Source: Clostridiales bacterium (GTDB lineage Bacteria; Bacillota; Clostridia; Oscillospirales; Acutalibacteraceae). From it: 51,316 bases of DNA. Made by a program: the position numbers and the translations under genes. Under the pieces are notes generated by a model. That model was not told the DNA's origin. It searched no databases and saw nothing but the letters and a program-made list of their open reading frames with translations. The stretch lies in assembly GCA_022791355.1 (NCBI GenBank), contig JAAVYX010000089.1, forward strand, positions 1 through 51,316, given 5' to 3'. Positions 7,560-51,316 of this stretch are shown here, in pieces. Position 1 is the stretch's first letter; each line of letters starts with the position of its first letter.

Positions 7560-7658
7560 AATCATGATTTGCCGTGCAAAGCAAAATTTTTGTGAGGCCC
7601 TCGATGGGCCGAACGAAAGTCATACATACGCGGAACATATAAATAAGGTGGGTGCAGA

Positions 7659-8123
7659 ATGGCTTTTTTGAATACGATGAGCATTGTGGGGTCCGGCCTG
7701 ACGGCGCAGCAGCTGCGCTTGGACGTCATTTCGGAAAACGTTACGAATTCAACCACGACCCGGACCGAAAACGGCGGGGAAACCTATCGCCGTAAGGTCG
7801 TATACTTTGAGTCCAACTCGGGGGCACATTCCTTCCGGGCGGCCATGGCCCGAGCGGCCAGAGGGCTGCCGGTGAGCAAGGAGGGCGAGCAGGTCGGCGG
7901 CGTTCGGGTCACCCAGATTTTGGAGGACCCATCCGACTTTAAGCTGATGTATGATCCCACCCATCCGGATGCGGACGAGGAGGGCTACGTTTCCCTGCCG
8001 AACGTGGATATGGTCAAGGAGATTACCGACGCTATGGCGGCCTCTCAAGCCTATTCTTCTAATGTAACAGTGTTTAATACGATTAAAACCGTCGCCTTAA
8101 GAGGCCTTGATCTGGGCAAATAA
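7659..8123 (+). CDS. flgC: Flagellar basal-body rod protein FlgC
   Basis: MAFLNTMSIVGSGLTAQQLRLDVISENVTNSTTTRT, and C-terminal AMAASQAYSSNVTVFNTIK. Confidence 0.93.
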   Translation: MAFLNTMSIVGSGLTAQQLRLDVISENVTNSTTTRTENGGETYRRKVVYFESNSGAHSFRAAMARAARGLPVSKEGEQVGGVRVTQILEDPSDFKLMYDPTHPDADEEGYVSLPNVDMVKEITDAMAASQAYSSNVTVFNTIKTVALRGLDLGK

Positions 8124-12187: not shown

Positions 12188-12198
12188 GGAGAAACGGC

Positions 12199-13506
12199 AT
12201 GTCCACATTTCAACAGATGGCGCGTCAGGTATATAACGCCGAGACCTACAGCCTGACCGGTAAAATTGAAAACATCGTTGGAATGTCCATCGAGGCTTCC
12301 GGCGGACGGGCTGCAATCGGCGATATCTGTCGGATTTACAGCAGCGAATCCGGCCGGCAGGTGACCGCTGAGGTGGTTGGGTTTAAAAACGACCATATCC
12401 TGCTTATGCCCTATTCCAACATCAACGGTATTTCAGCCGGCAACTTTGTCCGGAACACAGGAAGCCAGTTAACCCTTCGCGTAGGCGAATATCTGCGCGG
12501 AAGAATCATCAACGCTTTAGGCCAGCCCATCGACGGCCGGGGAGAATTTGAAGAGGGTACGCCCTACCGTGTCGTCGGTTCACATATTAACCCTTTGCAG
12601 CGTCCCCCCATTCGCGAACGGATGGAATTTGGCGTGAAGGCCATAGACGGTCTGCTCACCATAGGGAAGGGACAGCGTATCGGCATTTTCGCAGGTTCCG
12701 GCGTGGGAAAAAGCACCTTGATGGGTATGATCGCCAAAAACGTCAAGGCCGATATCAACGTCATCGCCCTTGTGGGAGAGCGTGGCCGCGAGGTGCTGGA
12801 GTTTGTGCAGAAGGACCTGGGCGAGGAAGGAATGCGCCGTTCGATTTTGGTGGTCGCCACCTCGGACCAGCCCGCCATGCTCCGTATGAAATGTCCCAGC
12901 GTTGCCACGGGTATCGCAGAATATTTTAGAGATCAGGGCTATGACGTACTTCTCATGATGGATTCGTTGACGAGATTTGCAATGGCGCAGCGCGAAATTG
13001 GGCTTGCTATCGGCGAGCCGCCGGTGGCAAGGGGCTATACGCCCTCTATTTATGCCGAGCTGCCCAAGCTGCTGGAGCGCAGCGGAAATTTCGCCAAGGG
13101 CTCCATCACTGGCGTTTATACGGTCCTGGTGGAAGGCGACGATACCAACGAGCCCATTGCGGATACGGTGCGCGGTATTCTGGACGGGCATATTGTGCTT
13201 TCACGGTCTCTGGCCCACGCAAACCATTATCCTGCCATTGACATCGGCGCCAGTATTTCCCGCTTGATGAACGAGATCGTTTCCGACGGGCATCGGGAGC
13301 TCTCCTCCAGAATCCGAGACATTATGAGCGTTTACGAAAAAAATGCCGATTTGGTTTCCATCGGCGCGTATAAAGCGGGGACAAACCGGAAGCTGGATTA
13401 CGCGCTGCAGAAAATTGACGCGATTAACGCTTTTTTGATGCAGGGCGTCAACGAGGCCTTTTCTTATGAAGAGGTCGTGCAAAATATGGGGCAAATTCTG
13501 AAATAA
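12199..13506 (+). CDS. fliI: Flagellum-specific type III export ATPase FliI
   Basis: Walker A GSGVGKST, Walker B VLLMMDS, and an F1-ATPase beta-like core. Confidence 0.95.
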   Translation: MSTFQQMARQVYNAETYSLTGKIENIVGMSIEASGGRAAIGDICRIYSSESGRQVTAEVVGFKNDHILLMPYSNINGISAGNFVRNTGSQLTLRVGEYLRGRIINALGQPIDGRGEFEEGTPYRVVGSHINPLQRPPIRERMEFGVKAIDGLLTIGKGQRIGIFAGSGVGKSTLMGMIAKNVKADINVIALVGERGREVLEFVQKDLGEEGMRRSILVVATSDQPAMLRMKCPSVATGIAEYFRDQGYDVLLMMDSLTRFAMAQREIGLAIGEPPVARGYTPSIYAELPKLLERSGNFAKGSITGVYTVLVEGDDTNEPIADTVRGILDGHIVLSRSLAHANHYPAIDIGASISRLMNEIVSDGHRELSSRIRDIMSVYEKNADLVSIGAYKAGTNRKLDYALQKIDAINAFLMQGVNEAFSYEEVVQNMGQILK

Positions 13507-27983: not shown

Positions 27984-28846
27984 GTCAGGCGCAGACTGCG
28001 GCGAAGGACCCGGCGGCCAGAAGCTGGAACGCTTTTCAAACCGAGACCGACGCTATGGACACCCAAGAGCTGCTAGACGCTTACCGGACCACCGGCGATG
28101 AGAATTATAAATGGGCTCTTGTGCTCAGGTATAGAAATTCGATTGAAAAGGTCGCCCTGCAGGCCAAGGGAATTTACAGCCATTTCGTCCAGGTCGACGA
28201 TGTGATCAGCGAGGGCGTTTTGACCCTGTTGAGCGCCATCGACAAATACGACCCGGAAAAGGGCGCACGATTTGACACCTATGTTTCCAGGCGGATTCGC
28301 GGCATGATCATCGACATGGCGCGCAAACAGGATTGGCTGCCGCGAAGCCTGCGCAAACGGACAAAAGAGATCAATGTGGCGGTTACCGAGCTGTATAATG
28401 AGCTCAACCGTTATCCCAACGAGACCGAGATCGCGGAAAAATTAGGTATTACCCCGGAAAAGTATCAAAAGGAAGCCGCTGCGATTGCCTTAGGAAACGT
28501 TCTTTCCCTGGACGCTATGCTCGATATGTCCAGGGAAGACAGCGGCGCCCTGGAAATTCCGACCAAGGATGCGACTGGACAGCCTGAAGCGGCCTTGCAG
28601 GAGCTGGAGTTTCGCCAGATTCTGGCCGATGGAATACGAAGGCTGAAAAAAAACGAGCAAATTGTGCTTTCTCTTTATTATGAAAAAGATTTACATATGA
28701 AAGAGATCGCGCAGGTCATGGAAATCAGCGCACCGCGGGTTTCGCAGATCCATGCCGGCGCGATAGAAAAGCTGCAGGACTATATGAGAGCATACCTTCA
28801 TGAGACCGATTCCGCTCTGCGCGACAAAAAACGAAAGAAGGAATGA
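27980..28846 (+). CDS. sigD: Flagellar sigma-28 factor (FliA/SigD/WhiG family)
   Basis: Region 2 LLSAIDKYDPEKGARFDTYVSRRIRGMIIDMARKQDWLPR. Region 4 LSLYYEKDLHMKEIAQVMEISAPRVSQIHAGAIEKL. ATGA overlap with the flhA stop. Confidence 0.88.
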   Translation: MSQAQTAAKDPAARSWNAFQTETDAMDTQELLDAYRTTGDENYKWALVLRYRNSIEKVALQAKGIYSHFVQVDDVISEGVLTLLSAIDKYDPEKGARFDTYVSRRIRGMIIDMARKQDWLPRSLRKRTKEINVAVTELYNELNRYPNETEIAEKLGITPEKYQKEAAAIALGNVLSLDAMLDMSREDSGALEIPTKDATGQPEAALQELEFRQILADGIRRLKKNEQIVLSLYYEKDLHMKEIAQVMEISAPRVSQIHAGAIEKLQDYMRAYLHETDSALRDKKRKKE

Positions 28847-32491: not shown

Positions 32492-33778
32492 ATGGGCAGC
32501 AAGTATATTATGAAGCAGCCGATTAAGGACCCTAAGGGGGCGATTATTGGCCATGAGATATTGTACCATGGAGAGAATCAGGCTTTCAGCGGAGAGGACC
32601 CAAGCACCGCCAATGACTTTGCCGCGGCCGATACGATTTACAACTTTTTGACCCAAAACACCGCCAAAGCGCTGAAGGGCTCTCTGAACTTTATGACCTT
32701 TACCACCACGCTTCTGATGAAGAAAACGCCGCGGCTGTTTGCCAAATCGGAGCTGGTCATTCAGATTGACGACAGCGTGATTATTCATCCCCTGTCCATG
32801 CATTTTGTACAGCAATATGCAAAGGAAGGCTACAAAATCGCGGTGAACGAATTTCAGTTTTCGCCGCGGTATCTGGGCCTGATGGATAGTATCGACTATA
32901 TTAAGATCAACAGCAAAACCACCAATGATCTCACCATGCGCAATATCATTGAGATCGCGCACAGCATGAACAAAAAATGCATTGTGACGGATATTGACTC
33001 TGAAGAACGGTATCAAAGAGCTGTCTCTATGGATGCGGACGCGATGGAGGGAACCTATGTGGCCGAGATTATGACGGCCAAGGTCCATTCCAGCGCGTAC
33101 CTGCAAAGCAACTTCTTCCGTCTAATGGTAGCCGTTACGCGGGACGAACCCAATGTGGAAGAAATCGAGCAGCTCATCAGTACCGACGTCAGCCTGAGCT
33201 ACGGTCTGCTCAAGATGGCCAACTCGGTTTATTTCGCCCTCCGTCACCGCGCTACCACCATTCACCAGGCGGTTATGACCCTGGGTCTGGGCCAGCTCAA
33301 GCAGTGGATTTATCTGCTTAGCACCAGCGGCACCGACAATACCATCGACGCCGGAACAGAGGAATTTTTGAAGCTTTCCTTTATGCGGGCCAACTTTGCC
33401 AGCGAATTGATGGCTTACGCCAAAGATATGCCCATTTCCAAGTCGGAAGCATATCTGATGGGCATGTTCTCCACCCTCAATTATTTAATTGACGCGCCTA
33501 TGGAGGAGATCCTGGGAGAAGTGGTTGTGGCGGACGAGATCCGGGAAGCTCTGTTGCACAAAACCGGCCGCTGCGGCCAGCTGTACGACCTGATTCTTAG
33601 CTATGAGGCGGCGGACTGGGAGAAAATTACCAGTCTGGCTGCGGAGCTTGGCATTCCGGACCAGTATCTGACCAACGTGTATTTCGTGTGTATGGATAAT
33701 GTGAATACCCTTTGGGAACAGCTGACCAACGCTTACAGCACGGGAGAGGACGATACCGCTTCCGATGAACAGGTGTAA
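32492..33778 (+). CDS. EAL-like (apparently degenerate) plus HDOD domain signalling protein (COG3434/YuxH-like architecture)
   Basis: N-terminal QPIKD...GHEILYH EAL-fold start. C-terminal HDOD pattern LSYGLLKMANSVYFALRHRATTIHQAVMTLGLGQLKQWI. Last gene of the + strand operon. Confidence 0.7.
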   Translation: MGSKYIMKQPIKDPKGAIIGHEILYHGENQAFSGEDPSTANDFAAADTIYNFLTQNTAKALKGSLNFMTFTTTLLMKKTPRLFAKSELVIQIDDSVIIHPLSMHFVQQYAKEGYKIAVNEFQFSPRYLGLMDSIDYIKINSKTTNDLTMRNIIEIAHSMNKKCIVTDIDSEERYQRAVSMDADAMEGTYVAEIMTAKVHSSAYLQSNFFRLMVAVTRDEPNVEEIEQLISTDVSLSYGLLKMANSVYFALRHRATTIHQAVMTLGLGQLKQWIYLLSTSGTDNTIDAGTEEFLKLSFMRANFASELMAYAKDMPISKSEAYLMGMFSTLNYLIDAPMEEILGEVVVADEIREALLHKTGRCGQLYDLILSYEAADWEKITSLAAELGIPDQYLTNVYFVCMDNVNTLWEQLTNAYSTGEDDTASDEQV

Positions 33779-33949: not shown

Positions 33950-34879
33950 TTATTGCTCATGCAGGGGATTGTCCATAACGATTTTACAGGCGCGTAGAAT
34001 CTGCGCGGTTACTTCGGCATGGTATCGTTCGTTATAAATGATAACCCGAGGATTGCGTTCGTTTTCCGGCGCTACGATATACTTGGGAACGAGATTATTC
34101 AAAGCGATGGCCTTCACATCCGCCACGCATTTGGGACAGTCGCACAGGCCGAACATTTTGATATATCGGCCGGCGCTGTCTTCCACCAGGGCCTGCATGA
34201 TGTTGATATAGCTTGTATCTGGCGCCGGGGGCTCTGCGGCGGGAACAGGCTGGGCGGCAGGCGCCGGCGGCTGTTCGGCCTGTACAGGCGGCGCGGGCTC
34301 TGATTGCGGCTGTCCTGCCGGCGCGGCCGGCGGGACGGCAGAATCTTCCGCTTCCAGGACAGCGGCTGGCGGTTGGGATGCGGGCATAGAAGCGGCGGCC
34401 GTTTGAGTTTCTTGCTGGACCTCTTGGACCGCGGGCTGCTGCGCGTCAGGAATGGCGGCGGCTTCCGTCTCGGGTTGCGGGGGAATTTCCTGCTCAGTGA
34501 AGAGAGCGGCCTCCTCGGGCTTGGCGGAGACGGGTTCCGGTGCGGAAAGCGTCTCCGGCGGCTCAGGTTCGGAGATGGGCGCAGAGGCGTTTTCCGCCTG
34601 TTCCATTTCCTCCTGGGACAGGGCCGGCTCGTCTTCCAGCAAATCCTCTAAAGCGTCTTTGATTTGCGAGGTAATTTCCAAGTCGGAGGGCAGGGAGGGG
34701 ACAATGGCTTGGGGCGCGGTAGGAACAGGGGCTGCGCCGCCCGTCGTTTGAGCCGCCGCTTCCTGCGATTCGGCCTGCGCGGCGGCTTGGTCCGCTCCGT
34801 CCGCCTCCTTATAGTTTTTACTGATCAGATTCATCACATGGGCCGTTTTGCTGGTGTTGATTACTTTCTTTTTCGCCAT
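33950..34879 (-). CDS. ComFB-domain protein with an N-terminal basic peptide and a ~190-aa Pro/Ala/Glu/Gln-rich disordered linker
   Basis: MAKKKVINTSKTAHVMNLISK at the N-terminus, then low-complexity sequence. The C-terminal ~85 aa (YINIMQALVEDSAGRYIKMFGLCDCPKCVADVKAIALNNLVPKYIV) match the ComFB CxCxxC...ALN.LPP.Y pattern. Confidence 0.7.
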   Translation of the reverse strand: MAKKKVINTSKTAHVMNLISKNYKEADGADQAAAQAESQEAAAQTTGGAAPVPTAPQAIVPSLPSDLEITSQIKDALEDLLEDEPALSQEEMEQAENASAPISEPEPPETLSAPEPVSAKPEEAALFTEQEIPPQPETEAAAIPDAQQPAVQEVQQETQTAAASMPASQPPAAVLEAEDSAVPPAAPAGQPQSEPAPPVQAEQPPAPAAQPVPAAEPPAPDTSYINIMQALVEDSAGRYIKMFGLCDCPKCVADVKAIALNNLVPKYIVAPENERNPRVIIYNERYHAEVTAQILRACKIVMDNPLHEQ

Positions 34880-34897: not shown

Positions 34898-35677
34898 TTA
34901 TTTCTTAGAAGGCAGGGGAAACCGGTCGCCGGCTATTACGGCCACGACCTCCTGCAAGTCCTCGGCCGGCTTGCAGCGGGGAGCGTAGGTAATCACGCTC
35001 TGCCCGTGCGCGGGCGCCTCCGCAACGTTGATGCTGCGGCGGATCTTGGTTTCAAATACCCGGCTGTCCAATTGGCGGGCCACCTCCTGCGCCAGCTCCA
35101 GCACCTCCTGGGACAGGATGAGACGCGGGTTGAATTTGTTGAGCAGAATGCCCAGCACCTTTAAATGGGGATTAAAGGTATCGCGGACGCTGATGATGGT
35201 CTCCTGCAGCTGGGTAATACCCACAAGGCTGAGAATTTCGGCCTCCATCGGCACAATCAGGGAATCGGTGGCCACGTAGGCGTTGATGGTCAAAACATTG
35301 AGGGAGGGCGGCGTATCGATAATGATAAAGTCGTATTCCTTGCGAATGGGGCGCAGGCATTGGTCCAGCATGAATTCCCGGCGCGCCGAATTGAATTCCA
35401 CCTCTGCGGCCGAGAGGGTGATGTCCGCAGGCAGAATGTCGCCATATTCGGAGGAGACAATGGCGTTCTCGATCGATTGATTGCCCTTGAGCACATCGCA
35501 GACCGTATAGCCTTCGCCAATATCGAGCCCTAAATTAAAGCCCAGATTGCCTTGAGGATCGAGATCAATGCCCAGAACACGCGCACCTCGCTGATGCAGC
35601 CCGCAAATAAGAGCGGAAGCGGTGGTCGTTTTGCCAACGCCGCCCTTTTGATTTGTGATGGTGATGATTTCTGACAA
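34898..35677 (-). CDS. Orphan ParA/Soj-type (deviant Walker A) P-loop ATPase
   Basis: ITITNQKGGVGKTTTASAL (KGGxGKT), GIDLDPQGNL, and Walker B DFIIIDTPPS. No ParB gene is adjacent. The stop is 18 nt upstream of the ComFB-domain gene. Confidence 0.85.
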   Translation of the reverse strand: MSEIITITNQKGGVGKTTTASALICGLHQRGARVLGIDLDPQGNLGFNLGLDIGEGYTVCDVLKGNQSIENAIVSSEYGDILPADITLSAAEVEFNSARREFMLDQCLRPIRKEYDFIIIDTPPSLNVLTINAYVATDSLIVPMEAEILSLVGITQLQETIISVRDTFNPHLKVLGILLNKFNPRLILSQEVLELAQEVARQLDSRVFETKIRRSINVAEAPAHGQSVITYAPRCKPAEDLQEVVAVIAGDRFPLPSKK

Positions 35678-39239: not shown

Positions 39240-39400
39240 GCAGCTATCGGAACCGGCGGCGTTAAGCTGTTTGCCTGGAAAGGAATAGGGAGAACGGTTC
39301 CGGGGCTAGAAGGGCTTTTAGCCCGCCGTATAGCTGTTTCGCGTATCGTGGGCGTTTGCCGTTTTGACAGAGCTACTATGAAATGCAGAGGGATCCATTT

Positions 39401-40156
39401 ATGCCGGATATTATTCTGGAGGGCGTTAGTAAAATATATAAGGATCGTCACAGAGGTCGTTGGAGGGGGCGCTTAAAAGCAGGAGATCTTGATCTCACAG
39501 TTCGTGCGGCGGAGGACCTGGACCTTACTATTCGACAGGGGGAATTTGTTTTTGTCGTAGGCAGCAGCGGCGCTGGGAAAAGCACCCTGCTACGATTGAT
39601 CAGCGGCGGCGTAAAGCCGGATAAAGGGAAGGTTTACCTGGACGGATACAGTATGGACACCTTTCACTCCTGGAACAGGAGCTATCGGATCAATGTCTTC
39701 GGACAGGTTTGGCAGGAACCCACTCTGGTCAGAAAAAAAACGGTGGAGGAAAATCTGCGGCTTGTGGCGAATATTCACGACTGGATGCAGCGGGGACCTC
39801 ATAAGGCTGTGAAAGAACGCGTGAATAAGGTGTTGGGGCTTGTGGGAATGTCGGGATCCAACGATTTGTTCCCGGTGGAGCTGTCCGGCGGAGAAGTGCG
39901 GCGGGTGGAACTGGCCAGAGCCTTGATCAACAGTCCTTCCATTTTGGTGCTGGATGAGATCACCAATAACCTGGACGACGACAATATTTGGGATATTCTC
40001 CAATTGCTAATCGAGCTTAATGAAAAGGGAACCACAATTATTATGGCCACCCACGCCAGTCAATACGTGAATATCATGTGCCGCAGGGTGATCACCTTAG
40101 TAAACGGACGCATCCGTAGCGACGTGCAGAGGGGAAAATACGGCGATATGGTTTAA
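39401..40156 (+). CDS. Orphan FtsE-like ABC-transporter ATP-binding protein
   Basis: Walker A GSSGAGKST, signature LSGGEVRRV, Walker B ILVLDE, H-loop ATH. No permease or FtsX gene is adjacent. Alternative ATG at 39383. Confidence 0.75.
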   Translation: MPDIILEGVSKIYKDRHRGRWRGRLKAGDLDLTVRAAEDLDLTIRQGEFVFVVGSSGAGKSTLLRLISGGVKPDKGKVYLDGYSMDTFHSWNRSYRINVFGQVWQEPTLVRKKTVEENLRLVANIHDWMQRGPHKAVKERVNKVLGLVGMSGSNDLFPVELSGGEVRRVELARALINSPSILVLDEITNNLDDDNIWDILQLLIELNEKGTTIIMATHASQYVNIMCRRVITLVNGRIRSDVQRGKYGDMV

Positions 40157-40193: not shown

Positions 40194-40222
40194 TTGATAT
40201 AGAAAGTCATCAAAAATATGAT
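40194..40222 (+). promoter_or_regulatory. Sigma-A-type promoter candidate for the MCP gene
   Basis: TTGATA-N17-TATGAT. This would give a very short leader before GAGGAG and the ATG at 40245. Confidence 0.35.
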
Positions 40223-40244
40223 GGAAAGAAGAGGAGAAAAGATC

Positions 40245-42026
40245 ATGCTTAAAAACATGAAAATCAAGAAGAGCTTAATTCTGACATTTGGGATTACGGT
40301 TCTGCTTTCTGTAGCGATCATTATTTGTACTTTGTTTATTATGATTTCGCAGAAGGGCCGCTATTCCAACCTAATCGATCAGGAAATTAAGGCGACTGAA
40401 CTGATTACGAAAAGCGAACTGTATACCAATATAGCGGCCCGCGACCTTCGCGATGTGGCGCTGATGCCCAATGCCTCGGGCGCAGCTGATAAAATACAGT
40501 CTATTTATAAGACTCTGGAAGACGCGGACGCCGTTATGCAGGAGCTGAAGGCGGCGTATCCGCTGGCTGACAAATCGCAGCTGGAATCCTACATCAGCGT
40601 TTTCCAAAGCTGGGGACAGGAGATTCCTGACATTGCCGCCGCCATCACTTCCGGCAATATGACCCAGGCTATTAACATGATTCAAACCAAGTGCAGCCCT
40701 CTGCTGAATCAAATGACTTCCATAGGCGCCTCCTTGAGCGATATTCTCTCCGACGCTAAGGACAAGGCCATCCGTCAGCAGGAAATGATGACGACCTATG
40801 CGATTATCATCATTATCGCAGTACTGGTTATCGCCGTTATTTTCGTGTTGAGCCTCATCACCAAGTTGATCAAAACCATCACCACGCCCACCGAAGAAAT
40901 CCGCGCGGCTCTGGTTGGCTTCAGTCAGGGTAATCTGCGGGTTCCCATCACCTTTACAAGCAAAAACGAGTTGGGCGAAATGTGCGACGCCATGCGGAAA
41001 AGCCAGCATATTCTCGGCGGCGTTATCGAGGACGAGTGCTATCTGCTGGAGGAAATGGCCCAAGGCAACTTCAATTTGACCAGCAAGGACAAGAATCTGT
41101 ACGTCGGCGCGCTGAGCTCTATTCTGAAGTCTATCAGGACCATCAACTATAACCTCAGCGATACCTTGACTCAGATTTCCCAGAGCGCTGAGCAGGTTTC
41201 CGCCGGTGCCGAGCAGGTCTCTACCAGCGCTCAGGCTCTGGCCCAGGGAGCGACCGAACAGGCCAGCGCCGTGGAGCAGCTTTCCGCCACCATTAACGAA
41301 ATTTCTAACAACGCCCAGGAAAACGCCAAGAGCAGCGAAGAGGTCATGGTCCATTCGCAGGCGGCCGGCGGCAAGATTGAGACCTGCTCCCAGTATATGG
41401 AGCAGATGGTAGAAGCGATGAAGAAGATTTCCGAGTCCTCTGAGGAAATCAGCAAAATCATTGCTACGATTGAAAACATCGCTTTCCAGACCAATATTCT
41501 GGCGCTTAACGCCGCTGTGGAAGCCGCGCGCGCCGGCGTTGCGGGCAAGGGCTTTGCCGTTGTGGCCGACGAGGTTCGGAACTTGGCCTCCAAGTCGGAT
41601 CAGGCCTCCAAGGCGACTAAGGATTTGATTGAACGCTCTATCGTCGCTGTAAAGGATGGAGAGGAAATTGTAAACCGGGTATCCGACGCCCTTAACAGCA
41701 CCCGTGAGGCTGCGGGTTCCGCTGTGCAGGGAATTGGCACGATCAGCACGGCTGTGGAAAGCGAAGCCGAGTCCATTTCGCAGGTCATGGAGGGCATCGA
41801 CCAGATTTCTTCCGTTGTGCAGACCAACTCTGCGACCAGCGAGCAGTCCGCGGCTGCGAGTGAAGAGCTGTCCAGCCAGGCCGCGTTGATGAAGGATCTC
41901 ATGACGCGCTTTAAGCTGCGCGGGGTCGACAACCATGAAAACAGCATGGAGGTATCCGCATATACTGCTCCTGAGGCTTATGAGGAGGAAGGCAGCGCGA
42001 CTGTTAACTCCTTTAGCAAGTATTAA
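40245..42026 (+). CDS. Methyl-accepting chemotaxis protein: two TM segments, helical ligand-binding domain, HAMP, signalling domain
   Basis: Highly conserved hairpin-tip region [44 protein letters not shown] segment [19 protein letters not shown]. Confidence 0.93.
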
Positions 42027-42114: not shown

Positions 42115-42151
42115 GCCAGAGAGAGGTTGAATTCCCCTCTCTGGCATTTTT
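42115..42151 (+). terminator. Rho-independent terminator of the MCP gene
   Basis: GCCAGAGAGAGG-(loop)-CCCCTCTCTGGC followed by ATTTTT. Confidence 0.75.
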
Positions 42152-42257: not shown

Positions 42258-42373
42258 AGCCGCTCGACAGAGCGGCAAAAAGGGTCAGCCGCTCGACAGA
42301 GCGGCAAAAAGGGTCAGCCGCTCGACAGAGCGGTAAAAAGAGTCGGCCGCTCGACAGAGCGGTAAAACGACGA
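42258..42373. repeat. Four head-to-tail copies of a 29-bp unit, each containing a 7-bp-stem hairpin and an A5 tract
   Basis: Unit AGCCGCTCGACAGAGCGGCAAAAAGGGTC. Copies start at 42258, 42287, 42316 and 42345. The first two are identical and the last two carry a few substitutions. Confidence 0.9.
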
Positions 42374-42475: not shown

Positions 42476-44194
42476 ATGAGGAAAAAAAGAAGCTTTGCGG
42501 AAAGGTTTTTTCCATGGAAGAATGGCAAGAATTCTGAAAACGCCGCGGAGGAACAGCTGCAGTCTATTGAAATGGAGGAGATTCCTCCTCCCGAGAGGCC
42601 CAAGGATGAAATAAAGGTTCAAGCCGGCCGGCAGCTTACGCAGGCCTGGCAAAAATGGCGCGGGGACGCGGCCACGCTTTGGCTAACCGTATTCGGCGGC
42701 GAAAACGGCTGCAAATTGCATCTCGACCCCTCGACGCTGGAGCCTGAGGGGAGCAGACTATCCGACCAGCTGGAAAAGGTTGCGGAAAAATATTTGCAGG
42801 CATGGGAGAAAGCGGCCAAAGAAACTGCGGCGGAGCCGGGCGCGCTGTGTAAAGTCTATATGTCCGCCGACCGGATGGCGGCTTGGCTTTTCCTGTTTCC
42901 ACCTTTTTCCCCGCAGGATAAAATTTCATTGGAAGCGCTCAACGAAGCCGTGCGGAAGAGCGGCGTTACGACTGGAATCGATCAGGCCGCGATAGACTAT
43001 GTATTTCAAAATCAGCCCTATTTTGAGCTCGTGCCTCTGGCCTGCGGCACAATGCCCGTTGAGGGCGCGGACGGCACCATAAGGGAACTATATCCCCGGC
43101 AGACCGAGGACGAAATCAAGACGGATGAAAGCGGCGCGGTCGATTACCATATGAAAAATTATATCCAGGCGGTCCAAAAAGGGGACATTATTTGCGACAT
43201 CCTTCCGCCCACAGAGGGTACGCCCGGCATGCGGGTGGACGGTCAGGCCGTCAAACCCCATCCTGTGAAGCCGGCCAAGGTTCTTCTTGGCGCTAACACC
43301 GCCTTTACGGACGACAAACAGCATGTGATTGCCAAAATGGACGGACATCTGGAATACAGTCATTCCACCTTTTCGGTTCGCTCCATTTTAGATGTGGCGG
43401 GCGACGTGAATTACGAAACCGGCAATATTGAATATCATGGGGATGTTCATATTCACGGCAATGTCTGCGAGGGATTTTCGGTCCGTGCGGCGGGCTCGGT
43501 CATAATTGACGGCGCTGTGGAGTCGGCGCATGTGGAGGCGGGCGGAGACGTTATTGTGGCAGGCGGCATTCTAGGCGATAACCGCGCTCTGATAAAGAGC
43601 CGCAGTAGCGTCCGCGCAAAGTACTTGGAAAACTGCGTTGTATATGCCGGCGAAGGCGTATACGCAGACTGCGCCATAGCCTCGCAAATCGGCTGTGATA
43701 ACAGTATCGTAATCACCACCGGACGGGGAACGGTCATCGGCGGAACCTTGACGGCCGGTAAGCTGGTTAAGGCGCATATCGTAGGCTCTAAGTCAGGCAA
43801 AAAAACAAGGATCATTCTGGGGGTTCTACCCTATACCGAGCAGGAAGGCGCGGCCGGCGAGGCCGAGCTGGAAGAAATCCATCAAGAGCTTGAGAAGCTG
43901 GAGGAAGAAATTCGCCGGTTGGAACGGCAATCGGGAAGGGCAGACGCCAGCGCTCAGCTTGGAAAGGCGAATCTGCGCAAATCCGTCCTCACCATGAAGG
44001 AGGAGCGGGCCTTAAAAAGCAAGCAAAGGCTGGAATCGGCCAAGCCGGATTTAAAGCTGTGCCGGTTTGAATGCAGCGTTGTATACCCTATTACGAAGTT
44101 AACCATTCAGGAATACGTACATTACTTTGAAGATATGAAAAACAGCTGTATCGCGACGCTGGACCTGCAAAGCGGAGAAATTAAATTTCACTGA
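42476..44194 (+). CDS. DUF342 / FapA (flagellar assembly protein A)-family protein
   Basis: FapA-N-like VYMSADRMAAWLFLFPP...ISLEALNEAVRKSGVTTGID. Beta-helix repeats GDVHIHGNVCEGFSVRAAGSVIIDGAVESAHVEAGGDVIVAGGILG. C-terminal coiled-coil. Confidence 0.75.
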   Translation: MRKKRSFAERFFPWKNGKNSENAAEEQLQSIEMEEIPPPERPKDEIKVQAGRQLTQAWQKWRGDAATLWLTVFGGENGCKLHLDPSTLEPEGSRLSDQLEKVAEKYLQAWEKAAKETAAEPGALCKVYMSADRMAAWLFLFPPFSPQDKISLEALNEAVRKSGVTTGIDQAAIDYVFQNQPYFELVPLACGTMPVEGADGTIRELYPRQTEDEIKTDESGAVDYHMKNYIQAVQKGDIICDILPPTEGTPGMRVDGQAVKPHPVKPAKVLLGANTAFTDDKQHVIAKMDGHLEYSHSTFSVRSILDVAGDVNYETGNIEYHGDVHIHGNVCEGFSVRAAGSVIIDGAVESAHVEAGGDVIVAGGILGDNRALIKSRSSVRAKYLENCVVYAGEGVYADCAIASQIGCDNSIVITTGRGTVIGGTLTAGKLVKAHIVGSKSGKKTRIILGVLPYTEQEGAAGEAELEEIHQELEKLEEEIRRLERQSGRADASAQLGKANLRKSVLTMKEERALKSKQRLESAKPDLKLCRFECSVVYPITKLTIQEYVHYFEDMKNSCIATLDLQSGEIKFH

Positions 44195-44583
44195 TTGGAC
44201 GATACGGCGACGTATGCGTCCTTCTCAGAGACGGCTTGCAAGCCCCGCGGGGTAAACGGACGAAGCTGTGATTTTTTTCCGGCCGGGAACAAGGGCTGCG
44301 GTTGAGGGCCATTCTCTGCTCTGAAACAAGCCCGACCTTTGGCATATAGTATACGCTATGCGTCAATTTCTGCGAATCCCTGGATTGGCTCCGCATAGCG
44401 GAGCGTCCCTTGGGGGAAGCATGGAGCGCTTTTTGACGTTCACAGAGATGGGCTGCGCGAAAATCTATATGGAAAATCGCGGCCCGGGCATAAAGAGATC
44501 GATTTGCAATTTTCCAAACAAACGGCTTCCTCCAGACGCTAGCCAGGCGGTTGCGGGTTGACCGGAAAGGGGCATTTGCTTCT

Positions 44584-46581
44584 ATGGCGAAATATAAGGA
44601 ACAGGAAAAGGATTTGATTTTCGCGCTGGACATTGGCACGCGCAGCATCGTCGGCGTTGTGGGCAGGCTGGAAAACGAAAGATTTAAGGTCTTGGCCATG
44701 GAAAGCACCGAGCACAATAACCGAACCATGCTGGACGGGCAGATCGACGATATCAGCGGCGTCGCCTCTTTGGCCGGGCAGGTCACCCAAAGGCTGGCAA
44801 GCAAGCTGGGCGTCCGTCTGAAACGCGTTTGCGTGGCGGCCGCCGGCCGTGCGCTGCGCACACAGCGCGGCAGCTTCTCCTTGGAGCTGAATGAAAAGAA
44901 CCCGATTACGGCCAATGAGATCAGTCAGATTGAAGCAGGCGCAGTTAGTATGGCGGAAGAAGCTTTGCAGGACGACGAAACTGGCCGCCGCCAATTCTAT
45001 TTGGTAGGGTATACCGTTGTCCAATACCGCTTGGATAATTATCCGCTGACGACCTTGCTGAACCACAGCGGCCAAAGGGCGGAGGGGGATATAGTAGCGA
45101 CCTTTCTGCCCGGCGAAGTGGTGGAAAGCCTATACGCCGCTATGCGGGAAATCGGGCTACAGGTGAGCAGCATCACTCTGGAGCCTATCGCCGCCATGAA
45201 CGCGGCTATTCCGGCCGAGCTTCGTCTGCTCAATCTGGCCCTGGTGGATATTGGAGCGGGTACCTCTGATATTGCCATTTGCAGGGATGGAAGCATTATC
45301 GGCTACACTATGGTCACCCAGGCCGGCGACGAGATTACTGAAACTATTATGCGGGCTTATTTGGTGGATTTTCAAACCGCCGAGCAGATGAAACGCAGCC
45401 TGAAAACCGACGGTACAATCACCTTTGTCAATATTCTGGGACTGGAGGAAAGCGTTTCGGCCGAAGCGCTTTTCAAGGCGATTGAAAAACCGATGGAAAG
45501 TCTGGCCGAGGCCATTTCACAGCAGATTCTCGCAATCAACGGCAACGCGCCGTCCGCCCTTTTCATGGCTGGCGGCGGCAGCAAGCTGGACGGCCTGCAG
45601 GAAAAGATGGCGGCGTGTCTGTCTATGGACCGAAAGAGGGTAGCCTTGGCTGGCGGCAACTTTTCCAAGAGCGTATTTACAGACGACGAGACTTTGGAAC
45701 TGAACAATTCGGAATATGCGACGCCCCTGGGAATTGCGGTTTCCGCAGGTATGGGACTGCTGAACGACAGCTATATCGTATATTTGAATGGGGAAAGAGC
45801 CAAGCTGTTCCGCAACGACGCCCTAACCTTGGGAGATATTTTACTGATGAACGGATATACCTATACTGACTTGATGGGCAGGGTGGGAAAAAGCCTGAGC
45901 GTCACGGTCGACGGAAAGCATATGCGTTTCCGAGGGGAACCGACAGCGCCGGCCATTTTGCGGATTAACGGCGCGGACGCGGCCATAACCACAGTCGTAC
46001 ACGCCGGCGATCGCATCGATTTTACGCCAGCCAAATCGGGCGCGCCCGCCGTTAAAACTCTGGCGGATATCTTGGGAGCGGATTATGCGGGCAAGGTGCT
46101 GGTGAACAATAAGGAGGCAACCTCCTTGCAAACCTCGCTTCGATACGGCGACGTGGTTTTAACCTTGGGCAAATCGCAGTCTTCTTCCCGGCCGACCAAG
46201 GCGGCGCGAAAGGCGGAAGACCCGAAACCGGAGGAACCCCCAAAGCAGCCGGAACTTCGAAAGCAGTCCGAACCTCAAAAACAGCCGGAACCCCAACTGC
46301 AGCTTCCGGTTCAGCAGGCGCAGCCGTCCGCGTCCCCGGCAGAAAATACGAAAAAGAAGGAACTGCGTTTTTTTTTGAATGACAGCCCCCTTTCGCTGCC
46401 GGAAAAAGAAAACAAGGAGCCCTACTATTTGATGGATCTGCTGGAATATACGAAAATCGATTTTGGAAACTTAGACTGTCCGGTGCGGATGACGGTCAAC
46501 GGAGCGCCATGCGCCTTTCAAACGGTGTTGCATGACCGGGATTCGGTCGTCATCTGTCCGGAAGAGAGTACAGTAAAATAA
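44584..46581 (+). CDS. FtsA/PilM-like actin-fold ATPase with a long C-terminal extension
   Basis: Phosphate-1 ALDIGTRS, phosphate-2 LVDIGAGTSDIAI, adenosine motif MAGGGSKLDGL. The ~270-aa C-terminal extension includes a PEPK-rich linker. Start is uncertain: the ORF track gives 44551, and the ATG at 44584 is used here. Confidence 0.7.
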   Translation: MAKYKEQEKDLIFALDIGTRSIVGVVGRLENERFKVLAMESTEHNNRTMLDGQIDDISGVASLAGQVTQRLASKLGVRLKRVCVAAAGRALRTQRGSFSLELNEKNPITANEISQIEAGAVSMAEEALQDDETGRRQFYLVGYTVVQYRLDNYPLTTLLNHSGQRAEGDIVATFLPGEVVESLYAAMREIGLQVSSITLEPIAAMNAAIPAELRLLNLALVDIGAGTSDIAICRDGSIIGYTMVTQAGDEITETIMRAYLVDFQTAEQMKRSLKTDGTITFVNILGLEESVSAEALFKAIEKPMESLAEAISQQILAINGNAPSALFMAGGGSKLDGLQEKMAACLSMDRKRVALAGGNFSKSVFTDDETLELNNSEYATPLGIAVSAGMGLLNDSYIVYLNGERAKLFRNDALTLGDILLMNGYTYTDLMGRVGKSLSVTVDGKHMRFRGEPTAPAILRINGADAAITTVVHAGDRIDFTPAKSGAPAVKTLADILGADYAGKVLVNNKEATSLQTSLRYGDVVLTLGKSQSSSRPTKAARKAEDPKPEEPPKQPELRKQSEPQKQPEPQLQLPVQQAQPSASPAENTKKKELRFFLNDSPLSLPEKENKEPYYLMDLLEYTKIDFGNLDCPVRMTVNGAPCAFQTVLHDRDSVVICPEESTVK

Positions 46582-46597
46582 GGCGGGTTATGATACA

Positions 46598-47428
46598 ATG
46601 TGGATATTAAAGAAAAACAACCCTACAGATTCGTCCGCGGATGAGAGGGAAGCGGCGCAGCCGGCCTATAAGGCGGCTGCGGCATCCCAGTTTATAAACG
46701 TTCGGAAAAATATAGCCATCGTTCTGTGCGCCGCTGCACTTTTCTGCCTATTGACGGGCTGCCAGTCCAAGGGGGAAGAGGAAGGGCTTATCGTCGAAAC
46801 ATATGCGATCGAGTCGGAAAGCGTGCCCGCTATGCAGGTAGAGGACAACGTGGAGGTGTCGATGACCGACCCCGTCACTTATGCGTACATAGGTTGGGAA
46901 AACGCGGGAGAATCGGTGTCCCAATATGTCGAGTCCATGACGGCCGAAGAAAACGGTTTTTCAGTGGCGAAAGCCAAAGAAGCGCCAGATTATACCAAAG
47001 AAAAGGGCGACGTGAAGCTTACCAAGCAAGCGGTAAGCGACGAAAATAAGCGGATTGCCCTGGAGTTGAGCTGGTATCCCGGCATCTGTACGGTAGCCGT
47101 TAGTCTGGAAGATGCCGCGGGCGGCGCAAACGGGGAAGTCGCTGAGCAAGAGACCCTGACCCAGACCGAAGCGGTCGAAATGATCCAAGGCCTGCGCCCA
47201 GCGGTTCTGGAGCTCAGCGGAGACAGTATGGACGCTTATAACGTTTATGTCAGAAATGGGCTGGTTGACGTCAACCAGGAGGCGTGTATCTGGCTGGAAA
47301 TCTATACCGATGCAACCAGGGCAGGGACAAACGCTCATATGGGAACCTACTATCTCAGTCGGGACGGCAAGCGGCTGTATTCTCTAAACCATGCGGACGA
47401 TTCAATCAAGAAATTAGAGCTTAGCTGA
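46598..47428 (+). CDS. Membrane-anchored or lipoprotein-like protein of unknown function
   Basis: 276 aa. The hydrophobic segment IAIVLCAAALFCLLTGC ends in a lipobox-like LTGC, but it follows an unusually long ~40-aa N-terminal region. The gene starts 17 nt after the actin-like gene. Confidence 0.55.
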   Translation: MWILKKNNPTDSSADEREAAQPAYKAAAASQFINVRKNIAIVLCAAALFCLLTGCQSKGEEEGLIVETYAIESESVPAMQVEDNVEVSMTDPVTYAYIGWENAGESVSQYVESMTAEENGFSVAKAKEAPDYTKEKGDVKLTKQAVSDENKRIALELSWYPGICTVAVSLEDAAGGANGEVAEQETLTQTEAVEMIQGLRPAVLELSGDSMDAYNVYVRNGLVDVNQEACIWLEIYTDATRAGTNAHMGTYYLSRDGKRLYSLNHADDSIKKLELS

Positions 47429-47467: not shown

Positions 47468-47506
47468 TGCCGGCCGCAGTTCGTACCCTGCGGCCGGCAT
47501 TTTATC
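47468..47506 (+). terminator. Rho-independent terminator
   Basis: TGCCGGCCGCAG-TTCGTACC-CTGCGGCCGGCA (12-bp stem) followed by TTTTATC. Confidence 0.85.
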
Positions 47507-47999: not shown

Positions 48000-50900
48000 A
48001 TGAGTGAAACAAAGAAATTTTGGCAAAGCATTTTGTGGGTATTGCTCCTGTTGGCGGCTGTTGTCCTATTGTTTCGGTGGTATTCCACAGCAAACAGTCA
48101 GCGTATTGAAACTCAAAATCTGAATTATACCATAGACTCCGCCCGGCAGACGGCTAAACGGATAGAGGGCGAGTTCGCCAACGCTGTCCTGCGCATTCGC
48201 AACTACGCTTATTTGCTGGACACCAGCCTGAGCGAGCCGGACGTCGGCCTGGAGCTGCTGCGGGGAATTGAGGAAAATTCGATTTTTGACGCGATTCATT
48301 TCACCAACAAGGAAGGAATCGACCTGGCCTCCAGCGGCGTAACCTCCAACAACCGTGACAAGACATACTTTATCAAGGGCATGCAGGGGGCGAGCGGTCT
48401 GGAAGTGGTCTTCACGCCTGGAGCGGCCGATGAGGCCGTAATAACCTTTTACGCCCCCCTGCGCCACGACGGCGAAGTTTTCGGGATGCTTCTCGGCATG
48501 TATTATGCGGAAAACTATTTGCAGAATATGCTGGCCGCCACCTACTTTGGCGAAGCGGCGGGCGTCTATCTGTGTACGCAGGAGGGGCGGGTTATCGCCT
48601 GTTCGGGCGGTTCCGGCGCGGCCCATGACAGCCGGCCTTTGTTGGACAGGCTGCGGGAGGAAAACCTGATCGACCCGGACGCCGCCGCTGAAGCCTGGAA
48701 TATATTCCATCAGGGCGACGGCGAAGGCGGGGTTATCTGCGACAGTAAGAGCGCAACCGACAATTTATGCGTGCTGCATATCCCAAACAGCGATTACGTT
48801 TTGGTGCAAACCTTCCCCCGCAGCGTGACGCGGGCCATGATCGAAAACGCCAATCACACCGGAATCGTTTTGCAGTGCATCCTTATCGGGCTATTTGCGC
48901 TCTATATCCTGGTTTTGGTCATCCGTTCCCAGCGGAAGCGAAAGCTGCTGGAGCGGGAAAACCGGGAGATGGGCTACGTAATCGACGGAGTGACCTCTCT
49001 GTTCTCCTGCTTCGTTCTAGTGGATCTGTTGGAGGGGTCTTATTGCTATCTGGCCGGAACAAAACCGGAAGAGTCGGCGTTTGCGACCGCCGGCCGGTAT
49101 AAGGAGCTTTCCGCCTACTTCGGGTCCCTTCTGGCGGATGAAAACGACCGGTCGAAATTTTTGGAGCAAATGGAGCCGGAGGCCCTTGCTGCGGGGCTGG
49201 GCAGCGGCGGCGCAAACATTCAGTATGAATACCGCATCCGGCGGGCGAATGTCGTAGGCTGGGAACATATGAATATCCTTTGCTTAGAACAAAAGGAGGG
49301 CCGGGCGTCTAAGGCCCTGATGTTCTGGCAGGACGTCACCAAGCTAAAGGAGGAGCAGCTGCGCACCCAGGCGGAAATTTCGATTGCCAACCGTAAGGAG
49401 AGACAGTATCGGATCGCTATCACCTCCAACGCCTTTTGCACCTTTGAGTTCAACTTAACAAAGGACTTAATGGAAGAGGACATCGCGCGCACGATAAACG
49501 GCCGCCGGGTATCTCTGCTGGAGAAAGTGGGGCTGAAAGCGCCCTGTAAAGCGTCGGATTGCTTTGAAAGGTGGAAAGCCTTTGTATTAGAGGAGTCTAT
49601 GGACGACTACGCGGCCGTCGTAAACCTGGAGCGCCTGCGGGAAGGTTTTGAAGCGGGGGAGGCTGAGGCGACGGTTGATTATTGGGAATGGGCTTCCGAT
49701 ACGGAGCAGATGTGCGTCCGCCAGTCCTTCATTATGACCCGGGACAGCGGCACCGGCGATATTATGGTTATGGTCGTCTCCAAGGATATCACAGAGCAGG
49801 TGCAAAAGCAGAGAGAACAGACCCAGGCCCTTCACGAGGCGTTGATGCAGGCCCAGCACGCCAACAACGCCAAGACCACCTTCCTGTCCAACATGTCCCA
49901 CGACATCCGCACCCCGATGAACGCAATTATTGGCTTTACTACCATTGCGGTTACCCATATCGACAACCAGGAGCGGGTGCGGGACAGCCTGCAAAAGGTC
50001 CTGTCGTCCTCCAATCATCTGCTCAGCTTGATAAACGATATTCTGGACATGAGCCGAATCGAGAGCGGAAAGGTGCAGATTAAGGAGCAGGAATGCAATA
50101 TTTCCGAACTGACCCACAATTTGGTCAGCATTATCCAGCCCCAAGTGAAAGCCAAACAGATGGAGTTGTTTATCGATACCTTCGACGTGGCCAACGAGGA
50201 TGTGATCGCCGACTCCCTCAAGCTCAGCCAGGTCTTCGTAAACCTGCTTTCCAACGCCGTAAAGTATACGCCTGCGGGCGGGACGGTCAGCTTCCGCATC
50301 ACCCAGGAAACCACCTTTCACCGGGGCTATGGAGATTACACTTTCGTTGTCAAGGACAACGGCATAGGCATGTCGCCGGAGTTTGTGGAGCATATTTTTG
50401 AGCCCTTCGAGCGGGAGGCCAGCACGACCAAAACCGGCATACAGGGGACGGGGCTGGGTATGGCCATCACCAAAAATATCGTAGACATGATGGGCGGCGT
50501 CATCGAGGTGCAAAGCGAGAAGGGAAAGGGCAGCGAGTTCAGAGTCCGCTTGAGCTTGAAGCTCCAGGACAAGGAAAAAAACGCGGCCCAGATCAAGGAA
50601 TTGGAGGGTCTGCGGGCCATGGTGGTGGACGACGACCCGGATAGCTGCGACAGCGTCACCCGTATGCTCAAGCAGCTGGGGATGCGGGCCGAATGGACAA
50701 CCTCCGGCCGGGAAGCTGTCTACCGCGCTAAGAGCGCTCACAATGAAGGCGATTGCTACCATACGTACATCATCGATTGGCAGATGCCCGAAATGAGCGG
50801 GGTGGAGACCGCCAGAGGCATCCGCGCGGCAGTGGGGCCAGAGGCGCCGATCATTGTCCTCACCGCCTACGACTGGGCGGACATTGAGGAAGAGGCAAGG

Positions 50901-51316
50901 AAAGCGGGCGTAAACGCCTTCTGTGCCAAGCCCTTGTTCCTGTCCGATTTGAAAAACGCGCTGCGGGTTACTCATAATCTGGCACAAAAGGAGAGCGAAG
51001 CCGCCTCATGGTCCCAAGCCGATTTCAGCGGCAAGCGTATTCTGCTGGTGGAGGACAATGAGCTCAACCGGGAGATTGCCCAAGCCATCCTGGAGGAAAC
51101 AGGCTTTATGGTAGAGACCGCTCCCGACGGTACTGATGCGGTGTCCATGATGCAGCAGGCGGCGGAGAACTATTACGACGCCATTTTAATGGACGTGCAG
51201 ATGCCGGTGATGGACGGTTATGAAGCCACCCGAACCATTCGCGCTCTGCCCCGTAAGGAGGCTAAAAGCATCCCCATCATCGCCATGACGGCCAACGCCA
51301 TGGAGGAGGACAAGGA
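48000..51316 (+). CDS. Hybrid sensor histidine kinase, 3'-truncated by the window end: TM, Cache-like extracytoplasmic domain, TM, PAS-like region, HisKA, HATPase_c, REC, REC
   Basis: Hand translation from the ATG at 48000 (RBS GGGAGG, 9 nt upstream) stays open to the window end. H-box FLSNMSHDIRTPMNAIIGF, N-box NLLSNAVKYTP, G-boxes DNGIGM and GTGLGMAI. Receivers: MVVDDDPDSC...IIDWQMPEMSG and ILLVEDNELNREIA...ILMDVQMPVMDG. Absent from the supplied ORF track. Confidence 0.88.
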   Translation, partial: MSETKKFWQSILWVLLLLAAVVLLFRWYSTANSQRIETQNLNYTIDSARQTAKRIEGEFANAVLRIRNYAYLLDTSLSEPDVGLELLRGIEENSIFDAIHFTNKEGIDLASSGVTSNNRDKTYFIKGMQGASGLEVVFTPGAADEAVITFYAPLRHDGEVFGMLLGMYYAENYLQNMLAATYFGEAAGVYLCTQEGRVIACSGGSGAAHDSRPLLDRLREENLIDPDAAAEAWNIFHQGDGEGGVICDSKSATDNLCVLHIPNSDYVLVQTFPRSVTRAMIENANHTGIVLQCILIGLFALYILVLVIRSQRKRKLLERENREMGYVIDGVTSLFSCFVLVDLLEGSYCYLAGTKPEESAFATAGRYKELSAYFGSLLADENDRSKFLEQMEPEALAAGLGSGGANIQYEYRIRRANVVGWEHMNILCLEQKEGRASKALMFWQDVTKLKEEQLRTQAEISIANRKERQYRIAITSNAFCTFEFNLTKDLMEEDIARTINGRRVSLLEKVGLKAPCKASDCFERWKAFVLEESMDDYAAVVNLERLREGFEAGEAEATVDYWEWASDTEQMCVRQSFIMTRDSGTGDIMVMVVSKDITEQVQKQREQTQALHEALMQAQHANNAKTTFLSNMSHDIRTPMNAIIGFTTIAVTHIDNQERVRDSLQKVLSSSNHLLSLINDILDMSRIESGKVQIKEQECNISELTHNLVSIIQPQVKAKQMELFIDTFDVANEDVIADSLKLSQVFVNLLSNAVKYTPAGGTVSFRITQETTFHRGYGDYTFVVKDNGIGMSPEFVEHIFEPFEREASTTKTGIQGTGLGMAITKNIVDMMGGVIEVQSEKGKGSEFRVRLSLKLQDKEKNAAQIKELEGLRAMVVDDDPDSCDSVTRMLKQLGMRAEWTTSGREAVYRAKSAHNEGDCYHTYIIDWQMPEMSGVETARGIRAAVGPEAPIIVLTAYDWADIEEEARKAGVNAFCAKPLFLSDLKNALRVTHNLAQKESEAASWSQADFSGKRILLVEDNELNREIAQAILEETGFMVETAPDGTDAVSMMQQAAENYYDAILMDVQMPVMDGYEATRTIRALPRKEAKSIPIIAMTANAMEEDK

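Follow-up and report, generated by a model that had tools for sequence, protein, structure and literature searches.

Background

What is an actin-fold ATPase of the FtsA/PilM class, 1.5-1.9 times as long as FtsA or PilM, doing beside the flagellar and chemotaxis genes of a clostridial genome? The question is raised by a 51,316-nucleotide (nt) contig of a Clostridiales bacterium of the Acutalibacteraceae (JAAVYX010000089.1, assembly GCA_022791355.1), referred to below in its full length as the window. As a sequence-only reading had claimed, three co-directional open reading frames (ORFs) are present here between two strong terminators. They encode a FapA/DUF342 protein, the ATPase (44584-46581), which we label ACT, and a lipoprotein-like protein (46598-47428), which we label MEMB. 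Relatives of ACT occur in Oscillospiraceae and Lachnospiraceae, dominant and often flagellated gut anaerobes in which the placement and regulation of flagella and chemoreceptors are largely unstudied.

Here we establish the architecture of ACT, its conservation and its gene linkages. The comparative set consists of 80 ACT loci from GTDB species-representative genomes, out of at least 527 stretches coding an ACT relative, and neighbourhoods were counted over 8 kb on either side of ACT; a distant sample comprises contigs of 12 family representatives in which the ACT tail is only 26-38 % identical. ACT appears to be an undescribed member of the FtsA/PilM class whose fixed architecture and genomic context are both new. 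The block is a conserved two-gene unit, ACT plus MEMB, together with a facultative FapA gene that stands, with a hairpin array, between the terminator of a methyl-accepting chemotaxis protein (MCP) gene and ACT. Thus, the domain calls and the motility link of the earlier interpretation hold, and its dedicated DUF342-actin module does not. We tentatively favor the view that ACT is an accessory scaffold ATPase of motility and chemotaxis, tied to cyclic di-GMP (c-di-GMP) signalling, and not a divisome FtsA.

An actin-fold ATPase with a predicted beta-grasp tail

The ACT frame is open from 44551, and its likely start is the ATG at 44584 because homologues begin 'MAxY..Q' and a ribosome-binding-site-like sequence, GGAAAGGGG, lies upstream; from there the gene runs to 46581 and encodes 665 aa. 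Residues 1-394 (44584-45765, + strand) form an N-terminal actin-fold ATPase domain of the FtsA/PilM class, identified by Foldseek, a PDB profile and sequence motifs, with a 1C-like insert that DSSP resolves as a strand-helix-strand-strand unit at residues 92-176. The central residues 395-529 (45766-46170) carry repeated 'xLNG...GDxI' modules in a predicted beta-grasp (ThiS/TGS-like) region, modelled as short strand/helix modules with a predicted local distance difference test (pLDDT) of 76-91 and conserved in relatives that are 24-30 % identical. A low-complexity linker follows (residues 530-589, 46171-46350, pLDDT 31-40), in which Pro, Glu, Gln and Lys abound and whose length and sequence differ among homologues. 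The protein closes with a predicted C-terminal beta-grasp domain (residues 590-665, 46351-46581 with the stop codon, pLDDT 84-92) of strand-strand-helix-strand-strand order by DSSP, which includes a weak ThiS match at 611-657 and is conserved in distant members. In the AlphaFold2 model, built with 56 homologues, mean pLDDT is 71 and the C-terminal domains lie at 76-92.

The earlier assignment of this gene to the actin-fold FtsA/PilM-like proteins is borne out by the agreement of Pfam, Foldseek and the PDB profile. ACT matches the Pfam FtsA, PilM_2 and MreB_Mbl domains, PilM_2 at 45.3 bits against a gathering cut-off of 27. A Foldseek search of the model against PDB returned FtsA for all of the top 18 matches (best E 2.9e-20, target TM-score 0.56-0.67, about 400 aligned columns), with PilM next and EutJ, DnaK and MreB well below, and a sequence profile run against PDB sequences gave the same order, FtsA and then PilM. 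The phosphate-1, phosphate-2 and adenosine motifs (DxGT, DxGxGT, GGG) are invariant in all 56 homologues, and ATP binding is therefore likely to have been retained. As for the tail, beta-grasp models match at E ≤ 0.01 in many of the same 56 proteins (Ub-Mut7C in 42, ThiS in 29, TGS in 25). The window protein itself scores 18.9 bits with ThiS, below the gathering cut-off of 22.5, and the PDB profile matches of its tail are weak and all of beta-grasp type (Rel TGS domain, SAMP1/2 and MoaD; E 0.13-0.9).

A search with the C-terminal 271 residues against 1.84 billion representative proteins found 580 clusters (50 % identity) at E ≤ 1e-3 and 209 at E ≤ 1e-10. In full-length members, which measure 606-1054 aa, the match invariably begins at around residues 390-430, and the architecture is thus fixed throughout the family. 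The family is represented in Oscillospiraceae, in Lachnospiraceae (Lacrimispora, Enterocloster, Hungatella, Eisenbergiella) and also in Sporobacter, Angelakisella, Intestinimonas, Flavonifractor, Desulfovirgula and an Epulopiscium metagenome-assembled genome (MAG). Sources name them 'cell division protein FtsA', 'FtsA domain-containing protein', 'pilus assembly protein PilM' or 'rod shape-determining protein'. No curated family exists for ACT, and a literature search over DUF342/FapA, FtsA-like, beta-grasp, PilZ and Clostridia contexts returned nothing that describes it. If the link of ACT to motility is functional, a widespread annotation would be corrected, since FtsA, PilM and rod shape-determining names are now spread over one family.

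Two long variants have neighbours of their own. A 1054-aa form (L085) is followed by a 610-aa lipoprotein that the MEMB profile does not detect (11304-13136), and a 943-aa form (L096) has a bactofilin and an NlpC/P60 hydrolase upstream (6142-7801).

ACT and its neighbours in related genomes

The motility setting of the block, noted earlier, is evident in the window, where the genes upstream encode FliP, FlhB, FlhA, a sigma factor, rod proteins, CheC, CheD, CheV, an EAL-HDOD protein, FliD, FliS, an FtsE-like ATPase and a Tar-type MCP. The last of these (40218-42026, + strand; Pfam MCPsignal, TarH/4HB sensor and HAMP domains) belongs to the commonest kind of gene directly upstream of ACT in relatives. 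An MCP gene holds that position in 44 of the 80 loci, or in 47 if three with an inserted block are included. A homologue of the FtsE-like ATPase lies upstream of ACT in 47 loci, and at least one flagellar structural gene is found within 8 kb in 54. The MEMB profile is matched in 52 loci, directly downstream of ACT in 51 and directly upstream in one (L063, Eisenbergiella).

The typical order in Oscillospiraceae is fliD-fliS-x-(FtsE-like ATPase)-MCP-ACT-MEMB, followed by a convergent AAA+ gene and then fliW, flgL and flgK, or by a PilZ gene. PilZ orthologs fall within 8 kb of ACT in eight Oscillibacter loci and, where the position could be resolved, form the second gene beyond MEMB; in the window, tblastn detects no PilZ homologue. 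Two Lachnospiraceae loci (L063 and L069) place ACT just upstream of flgB-fliE-fliF.

Signalling genes beside distant ACT relatives

Among the 12 distant representatives, five have ACT in chemotaxis or flagellar clusters. L083 reads unknown gene, YlqH-like, ComFB, PilZ, ACT, CheV, EAL/HDOD, with cheBRWA adjoining. In L088 a YlqH-like gene precedes a PilZ gene that overlaps ACT by 11 nt, a dCache MCP follows, and FapA (within 7 kb) and cheBRWA lie beside. L093 has PilZ, ACT, EAL-HDOD, MCP and CheW-CZB, then ComFB and fliE-fliF, and in L095 the PilZ gene ends on the ACT start. L098 carries a CheW-CZB gene that overlaps ACT by 4 nt, divergent from flgB...flhA. Elsewhere in the distant sample, the ACT stop is overlapped by a GAF-GGDEF gene in L087 and in the Epulopiscium MAG (L091), and a divergent HD-GYP gene is nearest to ACT in L081 (Desulfovirgula). 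Nearer to the window, the CheY gene of L035 runs up to or into the start of ACT, and a CheY-like gene is directly upstream of ACT in L021.

Separate lineages thus show an operon-level coupling of ACT to PilZ, CheY, CheW-CZB and GGDEF genes, and the full range of signalling genes linked to it over these lineages takes in MCP, CheV and EAL-HDOD as well. The sequence-only reading had guessed at a flagellar or chemoreceptor role, a guess to which the distant linkage to PilZ, CheW-CZB, CheY, CheV, MCP and GGDEF genes lends independent support. PilZ genes that overlap or abut ACT in four distant lineages call to mind the YcgR/MotI type of motor control, in which PilZ proteins act under c-di-GMP; the comparison is an analogy of context only, and the window itself is without a PilZ gene detectable by tblastn. 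We know of no actin-like partner of YcgR or MotI.

A conserved pair of genes precedes PilZ-ACT in the same number of distant lineages (L083 4968-6804, L088 5661-7392, L093 735-2472 and L095 5621-7166). It consists of a 414-494-aa protein without a Pfam match, which begins 'MA(D/E)(V/L/M)L(K/R)I(T/S)(T/S)PL' in three of the four, and a small protein that resembles the FlhB C-terminus (Bac_export_2, YlqH-like). Small ComFB genes are found beside PilZ-ACT in L083 and near ACT in L093.

A tentative role in motility control

If ACT serves motility, a working scheme can be put together. ACT would bind ATP and, by analogy with FtsA and PilM, self-associate at the membrane, where the groove between its 1A and 1C subdomains and its beta-grasp domains could dock signalling partners. 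It would in this way couple chemosensory or c-di-GMP input to the assembly, placement or function of flagella. MEMB would be the partner of ACT outside the membrane in Oscillospiraceae, and FapA, where present, may add a flagellar-assembly factor to the circuit. Such a link, if functional, would add an actin-like component to the control of motility by c-di-GMP and chemotaxis, in which to our knowledge none is known. A functional analogy, and no more, exists with ParC/ParP and FlhF/FlhG, cytoplasmic NTPases that are likewise encoded in chemotaxis or flagellar clusters and place motility machines; those are NTPases of the ParA/MinD or signal recognition particle (SRP) type, whereas ACT has an actin fold.

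A bolder version, which we regard as unlikely in its entirety, would make ACT a new cytoskeletal or scaffold ATPase of Clostridia that polymerises at the membrane under c-di-GMP (PilZ) and chemotaxis (CheY, CheW-CZB) control, docks partners through its beta-grasp tail and determines how many flagella or chemoreceptor arrays there are, where they lie or how active they are.

Several observations weigh against a role in motility. The closest structural match to ACT is FtsA, and some annotation pipelines name it so. In 26 of the 80 loci, mostly from Lachnospiraceae and Sporobacter, ACT stands among unrelated housekeeping or metabolic genes (for example nrdD, a short-chain dehydrogenase/reductase (SDR) gene, a GntR regulator, cotJ and alaS), and four of the 12 distant representatives show no motility or c-di-GMP neighbour; the motility link is therefore frequent and not universal. 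One half of the MEMB homologues lack a cytoplasmic tail and are simple lipoproteins. Finally, a search of the 400 nt 5′ of ACT for the sigma-D (sigma-28) pattern TAAA-N13-18-CGA[TA]A found nothing consistent, only two isolated matches in 81 sequences. The window has one weak match at 44182-44204, overlapping the FapA stop, and four in its whole length against 1.2 expected; the pattern search is evidence neither way.

Comparison with FtsA

The main rival holds that ACT is the FtsA of these bacteria, or a second FtsA for the vegetative or sporulation septum, and as a long-form division protein lies near motility genes by chance. We consider this unlikely, with the following in its favour. With FtsA (TIGR01174; PDB 7q6d, 4a2a) ACT has in common the actin fold, an FtsA/PilM-type 1C subdomain and conserved, intact ATP-binding motifs. 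Its top matches in both structure and sequence are FtsA, TIGR01174 is its best NCBIfam model, and some members bear the name 'cell division protein FtsA'. Many Lachnospiraceae loci have no motility neighbours. ACT is found 3.5 kb from ezrA in L082 and beside the bactofilin and NlpC/P60 genes of L096.

Against this, ACT scores well below the equivalog cut-offs that delimit FtsA, with 93.7 bits against 175.85 for TIGR01174 and 53.2 against 409 for PRK09472. The same holds for the filament families, with 22.4 bits against 365.75 for MreB (TIGR00904) and 16.4 against 400 for MamK. Canonical FtsA ends in an amphipathic membrane-targeting helix. In the ACT model there is no such terminal helix; instead, about 270 extra C-terminal residues are predicted to form beta-grasp domains, the last of which ends in a strand.

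The gene context differs as well. In Firmicutes ftsA normally lies directly upstream of ftsZ, whereas ACT is never beside ftsZ in the 80 loci and is found in chemotaxis, flagellar and c-di-GMP neighbourhoods. The FtsZ signature GGGTG[ST]G occurs in no frame within 8 kb of ACT in the 80 loci, no FtsZ gene is listed in the 12 distant loci or appears in the gene survey of the window, and none of the 80 loci has a second actin-fold gene within 8 kb of ACT. The repeated gene overlaps with PilZ, CheW-CZB, CheY or GGDEF also speak against a divisome FtsA. Should ACT turn out to be the sole FtsA of these bacteria, it would be a notable divisome variant that has lost the membrane helix and gained ubiquitin-like domains.

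The FtsE-like ABC ATPase upstream of the MCP gene (39383-40156, + strand) is an orphan: its best NCBIfam match, TIGR02673 (FtsE), reaches 174.4 bits, below the cut-off of 264.85, and no FtsX-like permease gene is nearby. In several loci it is directly beside ACT. FtsEX acts on FtsA in E. coli, and by analogy the pairing of an FtsE-like with an FtsA-like protein may be worth a look.

A possible chance position near motility genes

The neighbours might also be unrelated to ACT, which would then have some other general cellular role, its position near motility genes being a matter of genome history. We think this rather improbable. About a third of the loci lack motility or signalling neighbours, as this explanation would have it, no sigma-D promoter was found, and the MCP gene has a terminator of its own. 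This intrinsic terminator (42115-42151, + strand) is a hairpin of -23.2 kcal/mol (z -4.8) followed by UUUUU, and it is homologous to the hairpin after the MCP gene in L001 and L002 (85 % identity over 41 nt). On the other side stand the start/stop overlaps with four types of signalling gene, which arose in independent lineages at 24-30 % identity, and the ACT-MEMB order that is kept in 51 of the 80 loci.

The FapA gene and its spacers

The first gene of the block (42476-44194, + strand) encodes a 572-aa FapA/DUF342 protein with a FapA_N domain and a beta-solenoid. Both Pfam domains score far above their gathering cut-offs (FapA_N PF20250, 122.6 bits against 27; FapA PF03961, 184.5 bits against 31), in keeping with the family to which the gene had been assigned from sequence, and the window gene is an ordinary member of this known family. 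It has both domains and a flagellar-gene setting in common with Vibrio FapA, from which it differs in a 125-aa N-terminal extension and in its Gram-positive anaerobe host. Vibrio FapA localises to the pole in a manner dependent on glucose and EIIA-Glc, a behaviour that cannot be assumed for the window protein.

It had been suggested that DUF342 and a dedicated actin-like protein form a module, and in its full form this would make FapA, ACT and MEMB a three-part landmark for flagellar or chemoreceptor placement. Several features are in its favour. The three genes are co-directional between two terminators, and no terminator-like site is predicted on the + strand between FapA and ACT. FapA recurs by ACT in L021, L035 and L036, where it lies between MCP and ACT, and within 7 kb of it in L088. 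FapA has also been associated with gene neighbourhoods of the flagellar sigma-28 (PMC11607428), with which the setting of the window gene agrees.

Synteny tells against it. FapA is absent from 77 of the 80 ACT loci, among them the two closest relatives, L001 and L002 (ACT 74-75 % identical), in which the homologous MCP terminator is followed by ACT. The trio is not syntenic in related genomes, an outcome that the sequence-only reading had itself named as refuting: all three genes are together in the window, L021 and L035, and the sequence of L036 stops before the position of MEMB. The order in L035 and L036 is MCP-FapA-CheX-CheY-ACT. A 389-nt spacer separates FapA from ACT in the window and contains a candidate sigma-70-like promoter (44321-44350, + strand; CTGAAA-18-TATAGT, a weak match at 9 of 12 positions), and MEMB is limited to Oscillospiraceae and one Lachnospiraceae case. 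The DUF342-actin pairing is a lineage-specific juxtaposition, with FapA an occasional neighbour of ACT, and we judge a dedicated three-part module to be improbable.

Between the MCP and FapA genes lies a tandem array of a 29-bp unit, AGCCGCTCGACAGAGCGGCAAAAAGGGTC (42258-42367; 3.8 copies, TRF score 192, 96 % matches). Each unit forms a 7-bp hairpin, and the array folds as four consecutive hairpins of this kind (z -7.5). It has no second occurrence in the window and none in the 80 related loci, and it may mark the junction at which the FapA gene was gained or lost. The FapA-ACT spacer does not resemble the spacers between MCP and ACT in L001 and L002, the MCP terminator alone being in common, and a search of it for traces of the CheX and CheY genes present in L035 and L036 found none. 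Scanned in full against Rfam with gathering thresholds, the window yielded no RNA family and hence no riboswitch or leader in either spacer, and a PADLOC scan gave no defence-system signature for FapA, ACT or MEMB.

In L021 the FapA homologue is split over two overlapping frames (5493-6767 and 6667-7524), which points either to a pseudogene with a frameshift or to an error of assembly.

MEMB and the comparison with PilM

MEMB, an extracytoplasmic protein of 276 aa (46598-47428, + strand), begins 17 nt beyond the end of the ACT stop codon. The earlier description of a membrane-anchored, lipoprotein-like product at this spacing agrees with what the sequence contains: a 37-aa N-terminal region, a hydrophobic helix at 39-51, a lipobox L52-T53-G54-C55 and two alpha+beta domains. 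The lipobox fits the pattern [LVI][ASTVI][GAS]C after a hydrophobic helix, and its Cys is conserved among short-tailed homologues. Atypical for a lipoprotein are the 37 residues ahead of the helix, which contain no alternative in-frame start. A bidirectional intrinsic terminator (47468-47499; 12-bp stem with 10 G-C pairs, -27.0 kcal/mol, z -6.7, U-rich tail) closes the unit.

MEMB matches no Pfam or NCBIfam model. A word-based homology search with MEMB alone found five proteins, and a profile from locus-derived homologues was needed to reach the family of 215 members, all of them 'hypothetical', without Pfam matches and fast-evolving. The anchor varies among them: it is either a short lipoprotein signal peptide ending in Cys, or a transmembrane helix preceded by about 100 Lys- and Ala-rich cytoplasmic residues. 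AlphaFold2 models the ectodomain of MEMB as two alpha+beta domains with pLDDT above 90. Foldseek against PDB returned nothing at E ≤ 1e-3, and the best matches (E about 0.01-0.1) are a protease propeptide, PsbP and Flpp3-like alpha+beta domains.

A pairing of ACT with the MEMB N-terminus in the manner of PilM and PilN was considered and rejected: the tail lacks conservation, and the lipoprotein forms have none at all. A direct contact of the PilM-PilN type is unlikely because the cytoplasmic part of MEMB is not conserved. We may speculate that coupling between ACT and MEMB would need a third, membrane-spanning protein, for which the MCP is the obvious candidate.

ACT and PilM (TIGR01175; PDB 2ych, 5eou) have in common the actin-fold subclass and the Pfam PilM_2 match, PilM is the second-best structural match, a membrane-anchored protein is encoded 3′ of ACT as pilN is 3′ of pilM, and L090 has a T2SSF gene 2 kb away; but the idea that ACT serves a pilus or a secretion machine as its PilM-like platform, MEMB being the PilN/PilO-like partner, is very improbable, as ACT scores 64.9 bits against a TIGR01175 cut-off of 133, neither the window nor any gene map of the 80 loci shows pilB, pilC, pilN, pilO or pilin genes, and MEMB, often a lipoprotein without a conserved cytoplasmic N-terminal peptide, has a fold unmatched in PDB, PilN and PilO included.

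Other features of the window

In the flagellar operon, flhA (FHIPEP, 25872-27983) and the sigma factor gene directly after it (27980-28846) overlap by 4 nt, and neither flhF nor flhG intervenes, unlike in the fla/che operon of B. subtilis. On the bolder reading of ACT given above, its role may weigh most in lineages such as this one, in which the fla operon lacks both genes.

Several genes ahead of the block also recur in other ACT loci. The EAL-HDOD gene (32492-33778), whose EAL match is weak and partial, follows CheV, and the CheV and EAL-HDOD pair of the window also flanks ACT directly in the distant L083 and L093. Upstream of fliD, on the minus strand, are a gene for a 309-aa protein with a C-terminal ComFB domain (33950-34879) and one for a ParA/MinD/BcsQ-like ATPase (34898-35677) that recurs near fliD in about 18 related loci.

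Beyond the block, a + strand ORF (48003-51316) runs off the end of the window. It encodes at least 1104 aa of a hybrid sensor kinase with dCache, HisKA and HATPase domains and two receiver domains, and it stands where most Oscillospiraceae relatives have the convergent AAA+ (AAA_2) gene after MEMB. At the other end, positions 212-6764 hold genes for an M23 peptidase, a 1172-aa F5/8 type C and dockerin-like protein and, on the minus strand, an M14 carboxypeptidase with a peptidoglycan (PG)-binding domain, after which the flagellar operon begins.

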